Shown: in pieces, positions 8,385 to 19,480 of the stretch
Numbering within the stretch: position 1 is the first letter of the stretch
Layout: each line of letters starts with the position of its first letter
Source: Halarcobacter sp.
GTDB taxonomy: Bacteria; Campylobacterota; Campylobacteria; Campylobacterales; Arcobacteraceae
Reading direction: 5' to 3'
Length of the DNA: 64,000 nt
NCBI GenBank assembly: GCA_048571215.1
Contig: CP182352.1
Location: forward strand, 1,696,001-1,760,000
Notes under the pieces: generated by a model
Seen by the model: only the letters and a program-made list of their open reading frames with translations
What the model was told of the DNA's origin: nothing
Database searches by the model: none
Made by a program: the position numbers and the translations under genes

Positions 8385-8554
8385 AATTTACCTCATACTA
8401 TTACGATTGACTTCAGTGACTCGATGTATTCACTGCTAGGAGACTGTGAAAGAAGTCAATTTTAATATATATAATATTCTACATAAAAACACCTAAAAAT
8501 AATCATTCTAAAAATACTAAAATATTATAATATATTATATTTTAAAGGTGATTT

Positions 8555-8581
8555 ATGGGTAAAAAACTACTTGATAAATGA
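8555..8581 (+). pseudogene. intI-like 5' stub MGKKLLDK*
   Basis: AAGGTG RBS; KKLLD motif shared with other stubs; repeat follows. Confidence 0.55.
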
Positions 8582-8590
8582 TTGACATCA

Positions 8591-8690
8591 GAAACAATAA
8601 ATAAACACTCGGCTTCTCAAATGTGGGAAAGTGGGAAATTGACCTTTGCATTTTTTGATACCATTTTATTTGAATTGGTGTAATACTCAA
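8591..8690 (+). repeat. Structured repeat copy 1 (partial)
   Basis: aataaacactcggcttctcaaatgtgggaaagtggg...ggtgtaatactcaa. Confidence 0.85.
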
Positions 8691-8724
8691 TTTATACAAA
8701 GAAAGTTTGCAGCTAGTGTATTTA

Positions 8725-8887
8725 GTCCAGACTTTGTTGAAGCCGAAAGTTTTCTAATTATTTTCGGAGAAGACCGAGGACCGTTCAACTGGATAAAAGG
8801 TACTGAATGTACCTTTTAGGAAGGCGTTCCGCAGGTCAGGAAATAATTATAAAACTGTAGGGAACTTTAGCTTCAACAACCGTCTGG
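8725..8887. repeat. Large nested hairpin element
   Basis: ccagactttgttgaagc...gcttcaacaaccgtctgg with inner aaaaggtac-tgaat-gtacctttt. Confidence 0.7.
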
Positions 8888-9058
8888 TTGCTTTTTGTCT
8901 TACTTTTTACAACTAAAAAGTGAGAAAGCGAAGAACTTGTTCTTTAAGACAATTGCATACAATAAAAACTATTATCAAAATATTTGAGTATAAATAAACT
9001 TTTACTATACGTCTTAATTTCTATCGACTTTCTTTTGTGAAAAAGAAAGTAGCAAAGA
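8880..9058 (+). repeat. Left arm of structured repeat copy 2 (interrupted by IS110)
   Basis: Aligns with 25320-25520 and in part with 18706-18800. Confidence 0.8.
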
Positions 9059-9107
9059 AGTTGCCACCTTAAAAAATGATAAAATATAAAATATTTAAAT
9101 CTAATAT

Positions 9108-10091
9108 TTATGATATACTTTTAAATTTATTAGGGTCATATATATTATTATTTTTATATAATGAGTGAGCAATTACAATCATTTTTCGCATTACAGCAAT
9201 TTGTGCTACAGTAGTATGTTTGCCATTCTCTTTTAATCTATTATAAAATATTTTTAATTCTTCATTGTATTGTATCGCTGTCATTACTGCCATAAATAAT
9301 GTACCCCTACATAATTTTGAACCAGATTTTGATATTTTTGTTTTTCCTTTTATTGATGAACCAGAATCTCTACTAACTGGATCTAATCCAGCTAATGAAA
9401 CAATTTGCTTTTGATTTGTATCAGGATATTGTATAAAATGGTGTAATAATATAATTGAAGATAATTCTCCTATGCCTTTTATAGTTTGGATATTTAAAAA
9501 TGCATTATGTAAATTTTTGTCTTTTGCAATAACTTTTTTTATCTCAATAAGAATATCTTTTTCTTTTTTTTCAAATGATTTTATATCTTTTCTTAATGAT
9601 TTAATTATAATAGATGAAGCATCTTTTGAAACTAAAGCTTCCAAATGATTTTTATTTTGAGTTTTAATTTTTGATATAAATTTATAATATGTAATAAGCT
9701 CTTTTAATTCCTCGGCATAAGGATTAATAATGGGTATTTTAATCTGATTTTTTCTTGCAGTAACTATCATCTGAGATAACATTCTAGCATCTAAAAGGTC
9801 AGTTTTATTTCTTTGACCAATTGCTTTAGCAAAGTTAGCACTTTTCTTTGGATTAACAATAAAACAGTGTATACTTTTTTCAGAACAAAACTTTTTAATT
9901 AAAAAGGAATAATTAGCTGTAGGTTCAAAAACAAATACAAGTTTATCTATATCTTTTTTATAAAGTTTTTTTAACTTAGAATAAAAACCTTTAAGTGATT
10001 TCAAATTATTTGATATTTGAATATCTAAATCATTGATAGGGATATAAATATTAATTGTTGACTTACTTATATCTAATCCGATAGAATACAT
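9108..10091 (-). CDS. IS110 family DEDD transposase/recombinase
   Basis: GLDISK, FEPT, KTDLLDA, IKGIG, AGLDP..RDSGSS and AVMRKM motifs. Confidence 0.95.
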   Translation of the reverse strand: MYSIGLDISKSTINIYIPINDLDIQISNNLKSLKGFYSKLKKLYKKDIDKLVFVFEPTANYSFLIKKFCSEKSIHCFIVNPKKSANFAKAIGQRNKTDLLDARMLSQMIVTARKNQIKIPIINPYAEELKELITYYKFISKIKTQNKNHLEALVSKDASSIIIKSLRKDIKSFEKKEKDILIEIKKVIAKDKNLHNAFLNIQTIKGIGELSSIILLHHFIQYPDTNQKQIVSLAGLDPVSRDSGSSIKGKTKISKSGSKLCRGTLFMAVMTAIQYNEELKIFYNRLKENGKHTTVAQIAVMRKMIVIAHSLYKNNNIYDPNKFKSIS

Positions 10092-10109
10092 ATCTAGAAC
10101 CTTTGTATT

Positions 10110-10345
10110 AATATAAAGAGTTCGTTAGGGTAGGAATAAAATTCCTACCTGATATTTCGTCATACAAACTTTAGACTCGTAAATACGAACTAGTTATAAA
10201 ACTGTTCTTGTTGCCACTCAAATTTGAAGTATAACTATTGAACTTCTTTACAAGCTAATTAAAATTATTTTTAATTGCTTCAACCACCCACACAATATAT
10301 CATCTTCTATTGAACTCTATGAAAATATACTATCATATTTCCAAT
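10110..10345 (-). ncRNA. Putative IS110 bridge RNA
   Basis: Two stem-flanked internal loops whose strands match the target and donor junctions; TATAAT at the element end (10351-10356); boundaries approximate. Confidence 0.7.
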
Positions 10346-10358
10346 ATTTTATTATACG

Positions 10359-10631
10359 AACCATCCCACAGGTTTCGAAGGTGAAACTACTCTCGCTTAT
10401 TATTCATCCCTTTTGAGTGCCTAAAAACTTGCTAAAACGTTCTCCCAGAACGTTTCTTTAGGCTTCAAACAGTTTAGTCACTTGTTTTCAAAAGAGATAA
10501 ATAAACACTCGGCTTCTCAAATGTGGGAAAGTGGGATAAGGACCTTTGCATTTTTTATACCATTTTATTTAAGCTGGTGTGATACTCAATAATTATTATA
10601 AAATGTGGAGATTCAACTTCTGGGGTGTTAC
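10359..10631 (+). repeat. Structured repeat copy 2 (hairpin and tail)
   Basis: cccacaggtttcgaag...cttctcaaatgtggg hairpin and gtggagattca...ggggtgtta tail. Confidence 0.9.
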
Positions 10632-10663
10632 TTTAGAAGTATCTATTTTTAATAGAAAGATGT

Positions 10664-10704
10664 AAAAGAGAAAAAGAGGAATCAAACTTTCCTTTTCTCT
10701 TTTT
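10664..10704 (-). terminator. Probable intrinsic terminator
   Basis: aaaagagaaaaagagga...ttccttttctcttttt inverted repeat after the haem-binding gene. Confidence 0.5.
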
Positions 10705-10736
10705 TATAATAATTAAATAAATTGTTTCAAAACTTA

Positions 10737-11186
10737 TCAATCATTATCATGTTCTTCTTCACTACCAAATGTTTTTTCTAAGCCTAAAATAAGTTGTTGA
10801 GTTTCAGCTTGAGTAAGTTTAGCTTCAGGATGTGTTGGAAGATAATAAAAAGGTGGCATATCTCCTCCTTTTACTTCTTCTGCAGCTTCATCGCCTTTAT
10901 TTCTTTTTTGTGCACCCCACATAGAAACATTAAAATGTTCTCTACCCTCTTCAACGTCAAATGCAACCAACCAAGAGATAGGTGCAACTTTACTATACCA
11001 TGGATAAGTTGTCTTATTTGAGTGGCAATTAGCACAAGCTTTATCAAATAATACTTTTGTCTGCATTGAATCCCATTGAGGCTCCTTTACTACTGGTGGA
11101 TTTGTATAATCCTTTCCATAAGGAATAAATTGAATTAAGACAGCTACAACAGCTATACCTAAAATAATCTTACCTTTACTCATCAT
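10737..11186 (-). CDS. Haem-binding domain c-type cytochrome
   Basis: CANCH, YPWYSKVAPISW and MPP motifs. Confidence 0.9.
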   Translation of the reverse strand: MMSKGKIILGIAVVAVLIQFIPYGKDYTNPPVVKEPQWDSMQTKVLFDKACANCHSNKTTYPWYSKVAPISWLVAFDVEEGREHFNVSMWGAQKRNKGDEAAEEVKGGDMPPFYYLPTHPEAKLTQAETQQLILGLEKTFGSEEEHDND

Positions 11187-12231: not shown

Positions 12232-15207
12232 TTACTCAACTACTCCAGTACCAAAAGATGTTCCATCTGTCATGATTTTAGCTTGATTTTCTCCATATCC
12301 CATACTCATGTCAAGAAGTATTTTATTATCTAACAAAATCTTATTTATATACAGTTCATCATAAGCATATTTTAAAGTTGGAAATTCTTTTAATAATGTT
12401 GTCCCTTCTGTAGTACCATCACTTATCCATAATTGAATGTAAGTCTCATAGTTGCTAGAAGACGATAAATTTGTGATTTCTGCGACTATTAAAATTTTAC
12501 CATTCAACTCAAAAATACTTTTAATACCTGCCACATTAGTATCATCAATATTAGGTATTTTTTTAACTTCTGTTATAGTTGTTGGATTTATTTTCCATAA
12601 TGCCCCATTTATAACCTTATAGCTTATATTATTAACCGTTAAACTATTACCAAAATATGAATCACTTGAGCCAACTTTCAAATCTTCTACCATAACTGTA
12701 CCAGCTTCAGTTCCATCACTTTTCCATAATTCTTTACCATGTACACCATCATCTGCATCAAAAAACACAGTACCATTAACATCAATTAAGTTTCTTGGAT
12801 AACTCCAATTTGTTCCAACTCTAATATCTTTAATTATACTTGTACCTGCTTCTGTTCCATCACTCTTCCATAATTCTCCACCGTTAGCGCTATCATTATT
12901 ATAAAAAAATAAAATTCCATCACTCATAATTAAATCTTGAGGGGAAGAACCATAATCAGTAAGAGGTATTGTGCCTACTTCAGTACCATCACTTTTCCAT
13001 AATCTAGTTTTGTTATTTCCTTCGTTACCTGCAAAATAAAAAATATTATTATCAGCAACAGTAAAGTTATATAAATACGCAAAGTTATCTTTTATTTTTA
13101 CTGTTCCATTTTCAGTACCATCACTTTTCCAAAGGGAATCTATGCCATTATTGTCTTCAATTGTAAAATATAGAGTTCCATTAACATTGGTTAAATTAGT
13201 AGGGTTTGATGAATTTGCACCAATAACTATATCTTTTACTATCACTGTACCAGATTCAGTTCCATCACTTTTCCATAACTCTTTACCATGCTCTACATCT
13301 AAAGCTGTAAAATAGTATGTATTATTAATCTTAGTTAAACTGCTAACTGATGAACTTGCTATTTTTGTATTTATGTCTTTTAGTATCTTTGTGCCATTTT
13401 CTGTTCCATCACTTATCCATAGTTCAGCTCCATGATTATTATCACTCATAGTATAAATAAATTTTTCTCCCAATATTACACCAGATTCCGAAGTCCAAGA
13501 ATTCGATTCTGAAAGTATATTCGTTTTTAAAGGAGTGAGCGTTTCACTTGTAGTATTAAAGATTGATAATGTTTGATTACCCGTATTCTTATCCATTTGA
13601 GCTATATATAAAATATTATCTATTGGTGATTTTGAGATTGATGTATAATCTGATAAATCTAATAATTTTGTTGTATTATTAACTGTGCCATCAGTTTTCC
13701 ATATACTATCATTTGGCCATACATTATTATGTAAATATACAGTTTGATTATCTTCACTAAAGAAATCAAATGTATTAGATACTTCACCTGATGTTCTTGT
13801 TATTAATTTGATAGTTCCTACTTCAGTACCATCACTAATCCAAACATTTCCTCTTTGATAAAAATATACATTTTCTCCAAAAATTGAAAAAGCACCTGGA
13901 TCATAATCACTATTATATGTATAAAGAGTATTAATCTTTATAGTACCAATGTCTGTACCATCACTTACCCATAAATTTGTTTCTGTGTTGATAGCCGTCA
14001 TAAATATCTTAGTTGCTGTTGCAGCAAGTGTATTGATATATTCTCCTAAGTCTTTTACTAAAATAGTACCACTTCCTGTACCATCACTTTCCCATAATTC
14101 TTTGCCTATAGAAAAATAAAGTTTATTATTAAAGGTTGTGATTTTAGAAAAATAACTTGGTAAATCTTTCACCAAAACAGTACCATTTTCAGTTCCGTCA
14201 CTTTTCCATAAATCACCAGAATTATTATCATCATACAACCTAAAATAAGCAACTCCATTTAGATTTGTAATAGCTTCAATAGAAACATTGGAAGAACCAG
14301 TTCTTGTAAACTCCTTAATGAATGTTGTTCCATTTTCTGTTCCATCACTTTTCCAAATACTACCATATCCGTTTGAAGTATTGCTATCATATCTATTTTG
14401 AGTAAAATAGAGTACTCCCCCTATATCAGTTAATCTTCCACAACTACCTGTTTTTAGTAATATAGTTCCATTTTCTGTTCCATCTGTCCTCCATAGTCCA
14501 CTTCCATTATTATCTGAAGCCGTAAAATAAGTGTAACTACCAACTGTTATGAAATTTGATGGAGATGATGATTGTGTTGCTGTATTTATTTTTTTAACAA
14601 CTGTTGTATCTATTCCGTTAGTACTTATTAATTCTCCATCTCTTGAGACAGTAATATTTTTTTGTGATGATAAGTCAAAAGTATTTTTCAAATGTTCTAT
14701 AGCTTTATATTTGAAAACTGGTTCTTTATTTGAAGCTTTTATTATTGCATCTAGTTTTGTTGTATTTATATCTTTTAAATTTAATGATTCAACAAACATT
14801 CCATGAATAGAACTGTCAATGTTTATTTCATTCGTAATATTTCCATCATCATCTAATGATTGTAATAATATAGCTAATTTTGCTGTGTATTCATCATCAA
14901 AGTTTGTTCTATCTACATTTGCTATATCCTGTAAGTAAATATTTTTATCATTTGTAAAGCCATCTATGCTGCCAATTATTAAATTACCTATCTTAAACGT
15001 AATAGTTGCACCACTTTCACATTCAAACTTTCCATTTGCTTGTGTAGTTCCATTGATGTCTCCACACTCATAATTTATACCAACTACGGGTGAATCAATT
15101 AAATACCCTGTTACTAATTGTGAAGATGAAGTGCTACTTCCACCACCGCAACCATTTAAAAATACTATGAAAAGTATTAAAACTATTATTGAAATTTTGT
15201 TTTTCAT
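12232..15207 (-). CDS. ELWxxDGT-repeat surface lipoprotein (3 kb cassette)
   Basis: LNGC lipobox; more than 10 (E)LWxSDGTxxGT repeats. Confidence 0.9.
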   Translation of the reverse strand: MKNKISIIVLILFIVFLNGCGGGSSTSSSQLVTGYLIDSPVVGINYECGDINGTTQANGKFECESGATITFKIGNLIIGSIDGFTNDKNIYLQDIANVDRTNFDDEYTAKLAILLQSLDDDGNITNEINIDSSIHGMFVESLNLKDINTTKLDAIIKASNKEPVFKYKAIEHLKNTFDLSSQKNITVSRDGELISTNGIDTTVVKKINTATQSSSPSNFITVGSYTYFTASDNNGSGLWRTDGTENGTILLKTGSCGRLTDIGGVLYFTQNRYDSNTSNGYGSIWKSDGTENGTTFIKEFTRTGSSNVSIEAITNLNGVAYFRLYDDNNSGDLWKSDGTENGTVLVKDLPSYFSKITTFNNKLYFSIGKELWESDGTGSGTILVKDLGEYINTLAATATKIFMTAINTETNLWVSDGTDIGTIKINTLYTYNSDYDPGAFSIFGENVYFYQRGNVWISDGTEVGTIKLITRTSGEVSNTFDFFSEDNQTVYLHNNVWPNDSIWKTDGTVNNTTKLLDLSDYTSISKSPIDNILYIAQMDKNTGNQTLSIFNTTSETLTPLKTNILSESNSWTSESGVILGEKFIYTMSDNNHGAELWISDGTENGTKILKDINTKIASSSVSSLTKINNTYYFTALDVEHGKELWKSDGTESGTVIVKDIVIGANSSNPTNLTNVNGTLYFTIEDNNGIDSLWKSDGTENGTVKIKDNFAYLYNFTVADNNIFYFAGNEGNNKTRLWKSDGTEVGTIPLTDYGSSPQDLIMSDGILFFYNNDSANGGELWKSDGTEAGTSIIKDIRVGTNWSYPRNLIDVNGTVFFDADDGVHGKELWKSDGTEAGTVMVEDLKVGSSDSYFGNSLTVNNISYKVINGALWKINPTTITEVKKIPNIDDTNVAGIKSIFELNGKILIVAEITNLSSSSNYETYIQLWISDGTTEGTTLLKEFPTLKYAYDELYINKILLDNKILLDMSMGYGENQAKIMTDGTSFGTGVVE

Positions 15208-17012: not shown

Positions 17013-18410
17013 TTAAAAACCAAGATTGAAATCATCAATTAAATCAATGATTACATCAGATGGATCATCATTTTTATATTTTCTCAAAAGCATTTCTCTT
17101 AAATGCTCGTTGTTTAAAAAAATAATTAATTTGTTTTTTTCTATAAAAATATCTTTTCTTTTCTCAATGCCACTTTGATTTGGAAGTTTTTTACTACATA
17201 TGATTCCAAATCTACCAATTGTTTGCTTTAAATAATCATCAATTTGAAGCAATACAGATTTGTCAATTTCACTTCCATTTTTAGAATAGTTTTTAAACTC
17301 AAACACTATATATTTTGCATCATAGTCATCCCTAATAAATTTCCAATTTTCATTACTATTTCGATTGGGATATATAGCATCTCTTATATCAATACCAGAT
17401 TCCCTCCGTGATTGTATTTTAGGTTTGCCAAGTGGTGGTACAAATAAGTAATTTAAAATATCTACACAAATATCTTCATATATTTTCCAACCTTCTTTTC
17501 CTTCTGGACATTCATCTAATCTTTTGATTAATTTTTGTATATTTTCTAACTCTTTATCAATTAATTTAATTTTTTGTTTTTTTGTAAAAGTTTTTTTATT
17601 GAAATATTCTTTTATTAAATGAGGGTGTGAAAAAAGTTTTTGAATTAGTTTATGTCTATCCCATATAATAATATTGGAGGTATTTTGCACTAAAAAATCA
17701 TGAGAACTTTTAGTAATTTCAGAATTTGTAATAAGTAAAATATTATTAGCTTTTTCGATAGTTGAAATTCCAATTAATTTCCTTAATACTTCAATTGATA
17801 TTTTCTGATTTTTATAAAACCTAGCTTCAACTATTGTTTTTTCCTCAATACCTAGTATATTTTTTGTCTTGGTTATAAAATCATACCCACCATCTTTTGT
17901 GGGTGGAGTTCTTTTTACTTCAAAATTTTCTGATAAAAGAAGATCATACACTAAATTTTCAAACTTTCTCCCATCAAAACTTGACCAATCTTGTAATTCA
18001 TAATCTACATTACCAGTTTGTAGTAATGCCTTTTTTAGAATATCTAAACCAATTTCTTTATTTTTTGAAAAATCAGCATATAAGTAATTAGATAAATCAT
18101 ATGGGATTGTTGAATTGTCAATTTTAATTGGTAGAATTTTAATGCCTCTATTACTGGCATTTTGTAATAAAGCAGAATTTAGTTCGTATTGCATCCATTT
18201 TGAAGTTAAAGAAGAATTACTTAACACAAAAATAAACGCATTGCTAGATTCAATACCAGATACAATTTTATCTTGAATACTATCACCGAGTTGAATCTCT
18301 TTTTGATCATACCAAATATCATAATTAGTATCTTGTAAATTTGCATTAAGCCATTCAACAAATTCTTTATCTTCATGTGAATAACTAATAAAAACTTGTT
18401 TCTTCATCAC
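17013..18410 (-). CDS. TIR domain plus Mrr-like restriction endonuclease protein (cassette)
   Basis: VFISYSHEDK and SKWMQYEL TIR motifs; FE..V..L and DGGYD..VEAR nuclease motifs; second D..FEFK motif at the C-terminus. Confidence 0.85.
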   Translation of the reverse strand: MMKKQVFISYSHEDKEFVEWLNANLQDTNYDIWYDQKEIQLGDSIQDKIVSGIESSNAFIFVLSNSSLTSKWMQYELNSALLQNASNRGIKILPIKIDNSTIPYDLSNYLYADFSKNKEIGLDILKKALLQTGNVDYELQDWSSFDGRKFENLVYDLLLSENFEVKRTPPTKDGGYDFITKTKNILGIEEKTIVEARFYKNQKISIEVLRKLIGISTIEKANNILLITNSEITKSSHDFLVQNTSNIIIWDRHKLIQKLFSHPHLIKEYFNKKTFTKKQKIKLIDKELENIQKLIKRLDECPEGKEGWKIYEDICVDILNYLFVPPLGKPKIQSRRESGIDIRDAIYPNRNSNENWKFIRDDYDAKYIVFEFKNYSKNGSEIDKSVLLQIDDYLKQTIGRFGIICSKKLPNQSGIEKRKDIFIEKNKLIIFLNNEHLREMLLRKYKNDDPSDVIIDLIDDFNLGF

Positions 18411-19077: not shown

Positions 19078-19277
19078 CTATAAACAAATGTATAGATGGA
19101 ACATGAAACTATTATCGATGATTATACTACTAAAATGAATACAAAAAAAGCAAGAGATATAGTTAGAAAAAGAGCTTCAATTGTAGAGCATCCATTTTGC
19201 AAGTGTGAATTCCATTTCACTTCATGGTACAATAAAAAGAACTTTAGGTTGGGATCATTTTTTAGTAAGAGGAAAAC
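19078..19277 (+). pseudogene. Transposase fragment, IS1182-like C-terminus
   Basis: RKRASIVEHPF, 28-bp insert, then GTIKRTLGWDHFLVRGK. Confidence 0.7.
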
Positions 19278-19480
19278 AAAAGGCAAGCATACAACAGCTG
19301 TTCAAATTGCACTTATGCGAAAAATGATAATTATTGCACATTCTTTATATAAAAATGACATACAATATGACAAAGATTTTTATAAAAAAAGTTGTGGATT
19401 TCAAGAGTAGAAAACTACTCTTGATTTAAGAAATTGATTTAATTAAAATTTATAAATTTCAAGTTTTTTTAAGGTGGCGA
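19278..19480 (+). mobile_element. 3' remnant of a second, diverged IS110
   Basis: GKHTTAVQIALMRKMIIIAHSLYKN resembles the C-terminus of the intact copy; ends ttttttaaggtggcgact like the intact IS end. Confidence 0.8.

Follow-up and report, generated by a model that had tools for sequence, protein, structure and literature searches.

A Halarcobacter IS110-group insertion sequence with a predicted IS621-type bridge RNA whose guides match a structured host repeat

We analysed a 64,000-nt stretch of the Halarcobacter sp. genome (assembly GCA_048571215.1, contig CP182352.1, positions 1,696,001 to 1,760,000 of the forward strand; hereafter the window, to which coordinates refer unless a contig is named) and describe in it an IS110-group insertion sequence, element A, which occupies 10358..9059 on the minus strand and measures 1300 bp with one core counted. 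The element consists of a 267-nt left end (LE), a gene for a 327-aa DEDD/Ser recombinase and a 47-nt right end (RE). We conclude, with a probability of roughly 0.9, that element A is mobile by bridge-RNA-guided recombination of the IS621 type and represents a natural case of this known mechanism. The observations that carry this conclusion are the anatomy of the element, the number and identity of its copies, its empty sites, and the covariation both within the stems of its leader and between guides and flanks. As far as sequence can tell, element A is IS621-like in every defining respect that could be tested.

A preliminary description of this DNA, made from the letters alone, had assigned the element to IS110, and the protein domains agree: the open reading frame (ORF) at 9108-10091 on the minus strand carries PF01548 (E 2.4e-15, residues 4-154) and, in its C-terminal part, PF02371 (E 2.6e-15), where S243-G244 is aligned to the SG of IS621. 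Full-length alignments to two transposases, that of ISCro4 (E 6.6e-27) and the structurally solved one of IS621 (E 5.6e-27), bring the GxD, E, DxxD and SG motifs together; D7, E56, D98, D101 and S243-G244 fall within the motifs to which IS621 D11, E60, D102, D105 and S241-G242 belong (numbering from PMC11208158). The long LE and short RE correspond to the IS110-group layout, and no inverted terminal repeats were seen when the ends were read, although no dedicated repeat search was made. The host genome, 3.61 Mb in one contig, contains four full-length matches to A, three matches to a paralogue, B, at 75% identity, and three short fragments. The four A copies show no difference across 1300 bp, and the three B copies show 0-2 differing positions across 1288 bp. 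In a plasmid collection, no relative was found at E 1e-30, and an exact-protein look-up returned no name.

All four A copies occupy one position of a repeat of about 600 bp, for which 31 junctions were read, 4 occupied and 27 empty. The empty junctions read ..GGGATGGTT|TCTTTGCTAC.. or close variants, with at least three T, which defines the target as a left target (LT) GGGATGG, a core TT and a right target (RT) TCTTTGC (GGGATGG-TT-TCTTTGC); this RT is present in 15 of the 27 empty sites and in all four occupied ones. The occupied state is LT-TT-[10358..9061]-CT-RT, with unequal flanking cores (TT left, CT right), and comparison of empty with occupied sites shows site-specific insertion with short-core flanks and no target duplication beyond the core. 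By analogy with IS621, these boundaries would imply a circle junction ..GGTGGCAA-CT-CGTATAAT. It had previously been proposed that the target was gggatgg-TTC-tttgct and the circle junction ..GGCAAC-TTC-GTATAAT. That target is wrong by one T, with no exact hit in the genome and 20 hits at up to two mismatches, none of them in the repeat; the TTC core is absent, and the boundaries imply the CT junction given above instead. Contig joints from sequencing runs skip exactly 1300 bases (9058 to 10359), in agreement with the boundaries; joints with a skip of 1300-1335 bases most probably stem from other repeat copies in the same genome that are empty, and not from excision. Wastewater runs held about half of the query words, and X5 alone among these was looked at.

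Shared flanks would be uninformative on targeting if no transposition had occurred and the repeat units bearing the element had been copied as blocks by duplication or gene conversion, an idea in keeping with the location of all four copies in one repeat family that is itself tandemly amplified. We regard such block copying as very improbable. The elements are 100% identical, yet the repeat copies that hold them differ mutually (left GGGATGG or GGGATAA; 75-92% identity over about 250 bp), the same element stands at a non-homologous site that shares only the RT TCTTTGC, as described below, and the guide/flank covariation of the relatives would be left unexplained.

The features of element A are collected in Table 1, including the left and right target guides (LTG and RTG) and the left and right donor guides (LDG and RDG) of the predicted bridge RNA.

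Table 1. Features of element A and of its flanks in the window; functions of RNA segments are predictions
Feature	Position	Strand	Remarks
Recombinase gene, 327 aa	9108..10091	-	D7, E56, D98, D101, S243 align with IS621 catalytic motifs
LE	10092..10358	-	267 nt; encodes predicted bridge RNA; begins CGTATAAT
RE	9061..9107	-	47 nt; end reads ..TTTTAAGGTGGCAA
LT, host repeat, TGTGGGATGG	10361..10370	-	last 6 nt and core pair with LTG
Left flanking core TT, the target's own core	10359..10360	-	same in 4/4 copies
Right flanking core CT, the element's own (donor) core	9059..9060	-	28/28 copies
RT TCTTTGC, host repeat	9052..9058	-	occupied/empty site comparison, contig joint
TATAAT, -10-like box, LE bases 3-8	10351..10356	-	invariant in 13/13 relatives
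5' stem-loop	10320..10343	-	9 pairs, 3 with compensatory change
Target-loop outer stem, 5' strand	10294..10307	-	pairs with 10226-10239
Target-loop outer stem, 3' strand	10226..10239	-	pairs with 10294-10307
LTG GUGGGUGG-UU	10282..10291	-	UU binds core (predicted)
Terminal hairpin, target-binding loop	10252..10280	-	9 pairs, 5 compensatory, 100% paired
RTG GUAAAGA-AG	10243..10251	-	against top strand TT-TCTTTGC: 9/9 including two wobbles; AG binds core (predicted)
Target-loop handshake guide UU	10241..10242	-	complementary to donor positions 6-7 (AA); rule from PMC11208158
LDG GUGGCAA-CA	10209..10217	-	equals RE GTGGCAA + core C; second core base mismatched
Terminal hairpin, donor-binding loop	10187..10207	-	8 pairs, 3 compensatory
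RDG UACG-AG	10176..10181	-	complement of CT-CGTA (donor core + LE start)
Donor-loop handshake guide UC	10174..10175	-	may pair with target positions 6-7 GG (C:G, U.G)
Conserved hairpin GGTAGGA..TCCTACC	10128..10150	-	between bridge RNA and ribosome-binding site; may be RNA 3' end or gene leader

Relatives turned up in 31 of 184 family genomes in a protein search, and at six loci in a scan of genome contigs. Using the conserved ends, LE YRTATAAT and RE ..AAGGTRGCAA, we read both junctions in 28 copies, which yielded 13 distinct leaders. The record titles of the relatives name Arcobacter, Halarcobacter, Arcobacteraceae and Sulfurimonas, so the earlier placement of the recombinase in Campylobacterota is right. 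Because folding of the leader as a single sequence was uninformative, structure was assessed on the alignment of leaders. The consensus fold comprises a 5' stem-loop, a target-binding loop with outer stem and terminal hairpin, and a donor-binding loop with terminal hairpin; the two internal loops are closed by stems, the target loop lies 5' of the donor loop, and four helices are well supported. With this structure made explicit, pairing extends to 95.4% of the alignment cells and compensatory change to 16 of the 45 pairs, a level of pairing and compensation reached by none of 500 shuffles (slid controls, 33-46%). Both the consensus fold and its covariation thereby uphold the IS621-type order, target loop before donor loop, that the preliminary description had proposed, and the motifs on which that proposal was based lie on the minus strand where it had placed them (GGGTGGTT at 10289-10282, a hairpin at 10280-10252, AAAGAA at 10249-10244, GTGGCAAC at 10217-10210, a hairpin at 10207-10187 and TACGA at 10181-10177). 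The TATAAT box may be the promoter of the bridge RNA; no good -35 element was found in the RE by inspection, and this analysis covers the integrated state only.

The leaders of A and its paralogue B are nearly identical except for three blocks (LTG, RTG and RDG), at the overall DNA identity of 75%: GTGGGTGGTTG in A against TGCGGAACTA in B, GTAAAGAAG against GATGGCGAG, and TTTACGAG against TTTTATAAG. The flanks of B are TTGCGGAA-CT on the left and CT-CGCTAAA or CT-CGTCGAA on the right, and its LE begins TATATAAT (TATA). Each guide block of B therefore fits the target or donor of B itself, just as the blocks of A fit those of A. Empty sites of B were seen twice. Together with B, 11 further relatives differ from A in little besides the guide blocks, and their flanks are altered correspondingly. 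For the relatives as a whole, we ran the guide-target covariation check that had been suggested, scoring 8 LT and 6 RT positions with the core omitted and wobbles counted as 0.5 (maximum 14). Cognate pairings averaged 11.0 (24 pairs, 13 leaders) against 5.74 for non-cognate ones (288 pairs), so the motif matches exceed chance, and the top non-cognate scores all came from sister elements that share their guides. For nine of the 13 guide sets the element's own site ranked first, and for three more that of a sister with shared guides; leader L015 fails. The proposal that the target loop is programmed against the repeat of the array is supported: the loop matches the repeat occupied by all four copies.

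Covariation extends to the donor side. RDG UACGAG co-occurs with LE CGTA in eight leaders and UAUAAG with LE TATA in five, a covariation that RNAalifold caught as CG/UA and GC/AU switches in 5 of 13 sequences. In L023, the LDG GUAGCAAC and the RE GGTAGCAA share a G-to-A change, and the LDG reads so only there. Furthermore, two elements of one genome (L065 and L066 of G167) are 98.3% identical, with 4 of their 22 differences clustered in the LTG and with left flanks that differ to match; judged by sequence, this is a natural one-loop retargeting pair. Alternatively, the protein or the DNA structure of the repeat might choose the site, the leader being a mere 5' untranslated region and the flank matches incidental. 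The target does lie between hairpins of the repeat, and an IS110 element has been reported with a target stem-loop as a second determinant (10.64898/2026.03.19.712850). Guides and flanks, however, change jointly in at least eight specificities while the remaining leader and the protein stay similar, and a structural gate could add to RNA guidance but not replace it; we consider site choice by protein or structure improbable.

RNA-library contigs from another organism hold the same element, with no differences over 10108-10359, at a different site. There, ..GGTTAGTAG-CT precedes the element and CT-TCTTTGC-AAAAAATATAC follows it, and the left core is CT. The RT at this independent site is identical for exactly the seven guided bases and divergent beyond them, and its LT forms six pairs and three wobbles with the LTG, with one mismatch, over ten positions. 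The RT is thus invariant at all five sites of A, whereas the LT varies. One might also regard A as a recently immobilised relic with readable but non-functional guides, and neither a circle nor a transcript was seen in the contig data; but the ORF is intact with its catalytic motifs, and the four identical copies together with the near-identical copy in another organism indicate recent movement, so that we give this explanation almost no credence. As a separate observation, one empty repeat copy (G000 C1:382960) reads TGTGGGTGGTT, an 11/11 match to the LTG of A that is better than at any occupied site, with TTTTTGC as its RT.

The way in which these parts may act together can be modelled on IS621. 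According to Durrant et al. (PMC11208160), a bridge RNA pairs with the bottom DNA strand through its LTG and LDG and with the top strand through its RTG and RDG, using 8-9 nt on the 5' side and 4-7 nt on the 3' side, core included. In IS621, handshake guides adjoin the core-binding bases, top strands are cut 3' of the core, and once strands have been exchanged, the RTG is base-paired to the donor core that has come in, and the RDG to the target core that has come in (Hiraizumi et al., PMC11208158). By analogy, transcription, a circular intermediate, catalysis and the order of strand exchange would follow the same scheme in A. The RNA encoded by the LE would be about 190 nt long and would contain a 5' stem-loop as well as two internal loops, of which the second would read the joined element ends (LDG GUGGCAA-C with ..GTGGCAA-C, RDG UACG-AG with CT-CGTA), and the DEDD/Ser recombinase would exchange strands at the 2-nt core. 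G.T and U.G wobbles would let the same guides read both the host TT core and the element CT core, the LTG end UU being perfect on TT, and the RTG and RDG end AG being perfect on the donor CT and forming a G.T wobble on TT. A top-strand cut 3' of the core keeps each core with its left arm and would give LT-TT-LE and RE-CT-RT, the arrangement seen in all four copies. Excision would be expected to give an RE-CT-LE circle and a restored TT site. The single-strand model of the 'half-match' preprint would also yield the junctions seen for A.

The core had been described as non-CT, which is correct for the target, whose core is TT, and incorrect for the element, whose donor core is CT. The right core is CT in all 28 copies read (A and relatives), while the left core is CT in 22, TT in five (the four A copies and L011) and GT in one (L015). 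The core dinucleotide is covered by LTG UU, RTG AG and RDG AG (with wobble for TT/CT), whereas the LDG pairs with the first core base only (CA opposite CT). RTG and RDG of A keep AG, the CT-type bases, and only in the LTG has CU become UU; this is also the sole place where the core-binding bases of A and B differ (UU against CU). With TT in the target and CT in the donor, A shows that wobble pairing allows natural elements to tolerate cores that do not match, and the junctions follow the top-strand cut. We did not use the left cores TT (L011/L018) and GT (L015/L024) as further non-CT evidence, as each comes from a single record, no empty site was seen, and the LTG register is ambiguous by 1 nt. 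TT cores have been made to work experimentally with an extended RTG (PMC11208160). A non-exhaustive literature search found no description of non-matching natural cores, and the supplementary target-motif tables of Durrant et al. may hold such cases.

Several results weigh against the conclusion that A moves by bridge-RNA guidance. Folded as a single sequence, a check suggested in the preliminary description, the leader (10092-10358) was no better than shuffles (z 0.70), and the outer stem of the donor loop is weak in the alignment (78% paired, no compensatory change). Rfam, which may or may not include a bridge RNA model, returned no relevant match in a permissive search of 8500-11000 or at gathering thresholds over the whole window, the sole return being a weak chance match to Chlorobi-RRM (E 0.55) inside the gene. 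Pairing is imperfect, as the two most distal LTG positions of A are mismatched and its LDG fails at the second core base, and the guides of L015, L025 and L029 fit their own flanks poorly. No RE-LE (circle) joint was listed among the contig joints from sequencing runs, and although RNA-library contigs span leader and gene, they may be DNA carry-over and cannot show transcription. Additionally, donor and target share position 7 in 16 of 24 natural sites and positions 6-7 in 13, so that a handshake guide could also pair with its own target: the target-loop UU fits the donor AA, yet the same 16 sites carry A at position 7, which makes cognate pairing possible. This pattern departs from the finding in IS621 that pairing of a handshake guide with cognate DNA is inhibitory and blocked exchange (PMC11208158).

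Among described elements, IS621 of E. coli, also of the IS110 group, shares with A both protein domains, the aligned catalytic motifs, a long LE and short RE, and an RNA encoded in the LE whose target loop precedes its donor loop. The likeness extends to the 5' loop side that pairs with the bottom strand and the 3' side that pairs with the top strand, guide lengths within the reported 8-9 and 4-7 nt, a CT donor core, handshake dinucleotides after RTG and RDG, and insertion into a host repeat. Unlike IS621, to which its protein match is distant (98 bits), A inserts at a host core TT while keeping CT, has an RTG of 7+2 nt and a -10 box wholly within the LE, and targets a mosaic repeat of about 600 bp and not REP; many natural sites of its clade also share positions 6-7 with the donor. 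ISPpu10 and ISPpu9 of Pseudomonas putida, which lie in REP, resemble A in being multi-copy at one position of an intergenic repeat and in having wobble pairs in the natural guide-target interface, and ISPpu10 has a strict right guide and a tolerant distal left guide, much as the RT of A is invariant and its LT variable (10.64898/2026.03.19.712850). They differ in host phylum, repeat and guides, and for A there is no evidence of IS-cargo-IS amplification. The IS1111-attC group (ISPa21, ISPst6 and others) is likewise of the IS110 family and specialised on repeated recombination sites of gene-cassette arrays, and the repeat of A also frames accessory genes; however, in that group the guide RNA lies in the RE and the elements have sub-terminal inverted repeats, whereas A has its RNA in the LE and its repeat shows no attC R'/R'' boxes on inspection. 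ISCro4/IS622 belongs to the same fold family by sequence (ISCro4, E 6.6e-27) and follows the same bridge RNA logic, but its engineering rules want matching cores and a non-matching position 7, while the cores of A are non-matching and its clade often matches at position 7. Our search of the literature, which was not exhaustive, found no report on IS110 in Arcobacter. The Campylobacterota host, the mosaic-repeat target, the non-matching TT/CT cores and the frequent donor/target identity at positions 6-7 are variations on a known theme.

The target repeat has a unit of about 598 bp (for example G000 C1:1979588-1980185) and is tandem at some loci, while elsewhere it frames accessory genes, including those at 8.5-26 kb of the window. 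Twenty-five copies free of the IS show long-range helices with covariation in three variants, and the consensus folds more stably on the strand of the gene and the IS (-25.0 vs -9.3 kcal/mol); the repeat has no Rfam match. It is detectable in 29 of the 184 family genomes, in 6 of 22 genera, and 14 of the 31 IS-positive genomes are also among the repeat-positive ones, a count in which relatives are not independent. The flanks of 9 of 14 tested elements match the G000 unit at various places and on both strands, so the specialisation on this repeat, which had been suggested for A, holds for the clade as a whole. Insertion places on the G000 unit are 598/1 for A, about 232 for B and the element of G088, and near 585, 525, 279-234 and, in reverse, 210 for others; between them, the sister elements use five or more positions of this repeat family besides that of A. 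The repeat may be an RNA gene, a recombination site or a mosaic mobile element. An extended -10-like TGGTAT box lies upstream of it, and its second half resembles an inverted, diverged copy of the first.

Other identities for the repeat were considered. An integron attC array is not supported, as no R'/R'' boxes were seen by inspection and no array lies within 60 kb of the integrase. This integron-type integrase (TIGR02249, 398 bits, over the cut-off) is encoded outside the window in a genome of this family, at G000 C1:895245-896189. Spread as a REPIN/BIME by a RAYT was rejected for now, the single Y1 transposase not being flanked by the repeat; that gene, of the IS200/IS605 type, lies at G000 C1:2560411-2560746. 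An ORF of 25 codons in the repeat's most conserved part was rejected because inspection showed a frameshift or stop in other copies.

A fuller reading, which we offer tentatively and consider unlikely as a whole, would join these observations. An Arcobacteraceae IS110 clade would have co-evolved with a conserved, structured mosaic repeat of about 600 bp that frames accessory-gene cassettes; sister elements would reach at least six repeat positions on both strands while changing little beyond the target loop; A would have adjusted to a TT-core site through its LTG alone (CU to UU) and retained its CT donor core; and the four LT-TT...CT-RT insertions would be a natural record that inherited junctions derive from top-strand exchange alone, as single-strand 'copy-and-paste' models propose. 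If this were true, the identical copies, placed at corresponding points of the dispersed arrays, would act as portable crossover sites for cassette shuffling. Rearrangement of modules by the element would be plausible only by analogy with ISPpu10-cargo-ISPpu10 (10.64898/2026.03.19.712850).

For the host, element A marks a multi-copy structured repeat that organises accessory-gene islands, and the known mechanism is unchanged. More broadly, the clade offers a clean natural set for bridge RNA rules outside Enterobacteria and Pseudomonas. Its thirteen related guide sets, the two paralogues that share a genome, and the 98%-identical pair in which four bases account for the retargeting serve as ready-made 'reprogramming' controls. 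The frequent donor/target identity at positions 6-7 departs from a design rule for engineered bridge recombinases.

The window holds further features near the element. At 9046-9070 on the minus strand, the RE end AAGGTGGCAA is able to pair with the right flank of the target, TTGCTACTTT, in a terminator-like hairpin that spans the right junction; the target flank, read as its reverse complement, is therefore similar to the left arm of the donor. A relic of an IS110 transposase gene, 100 bp long and 76% identical to the 3' part of the element, lies in the same array in opposite orientation (19257-19356, plus strand). One cassette framed by the repeat encodes a 465-aa protein with TIR and Mrr_cat nuclease domains, which is defence-like (17013-18410, minus strand), and its neighbours include a 991-aa repeat protein without a Pfam match (12232-15207).

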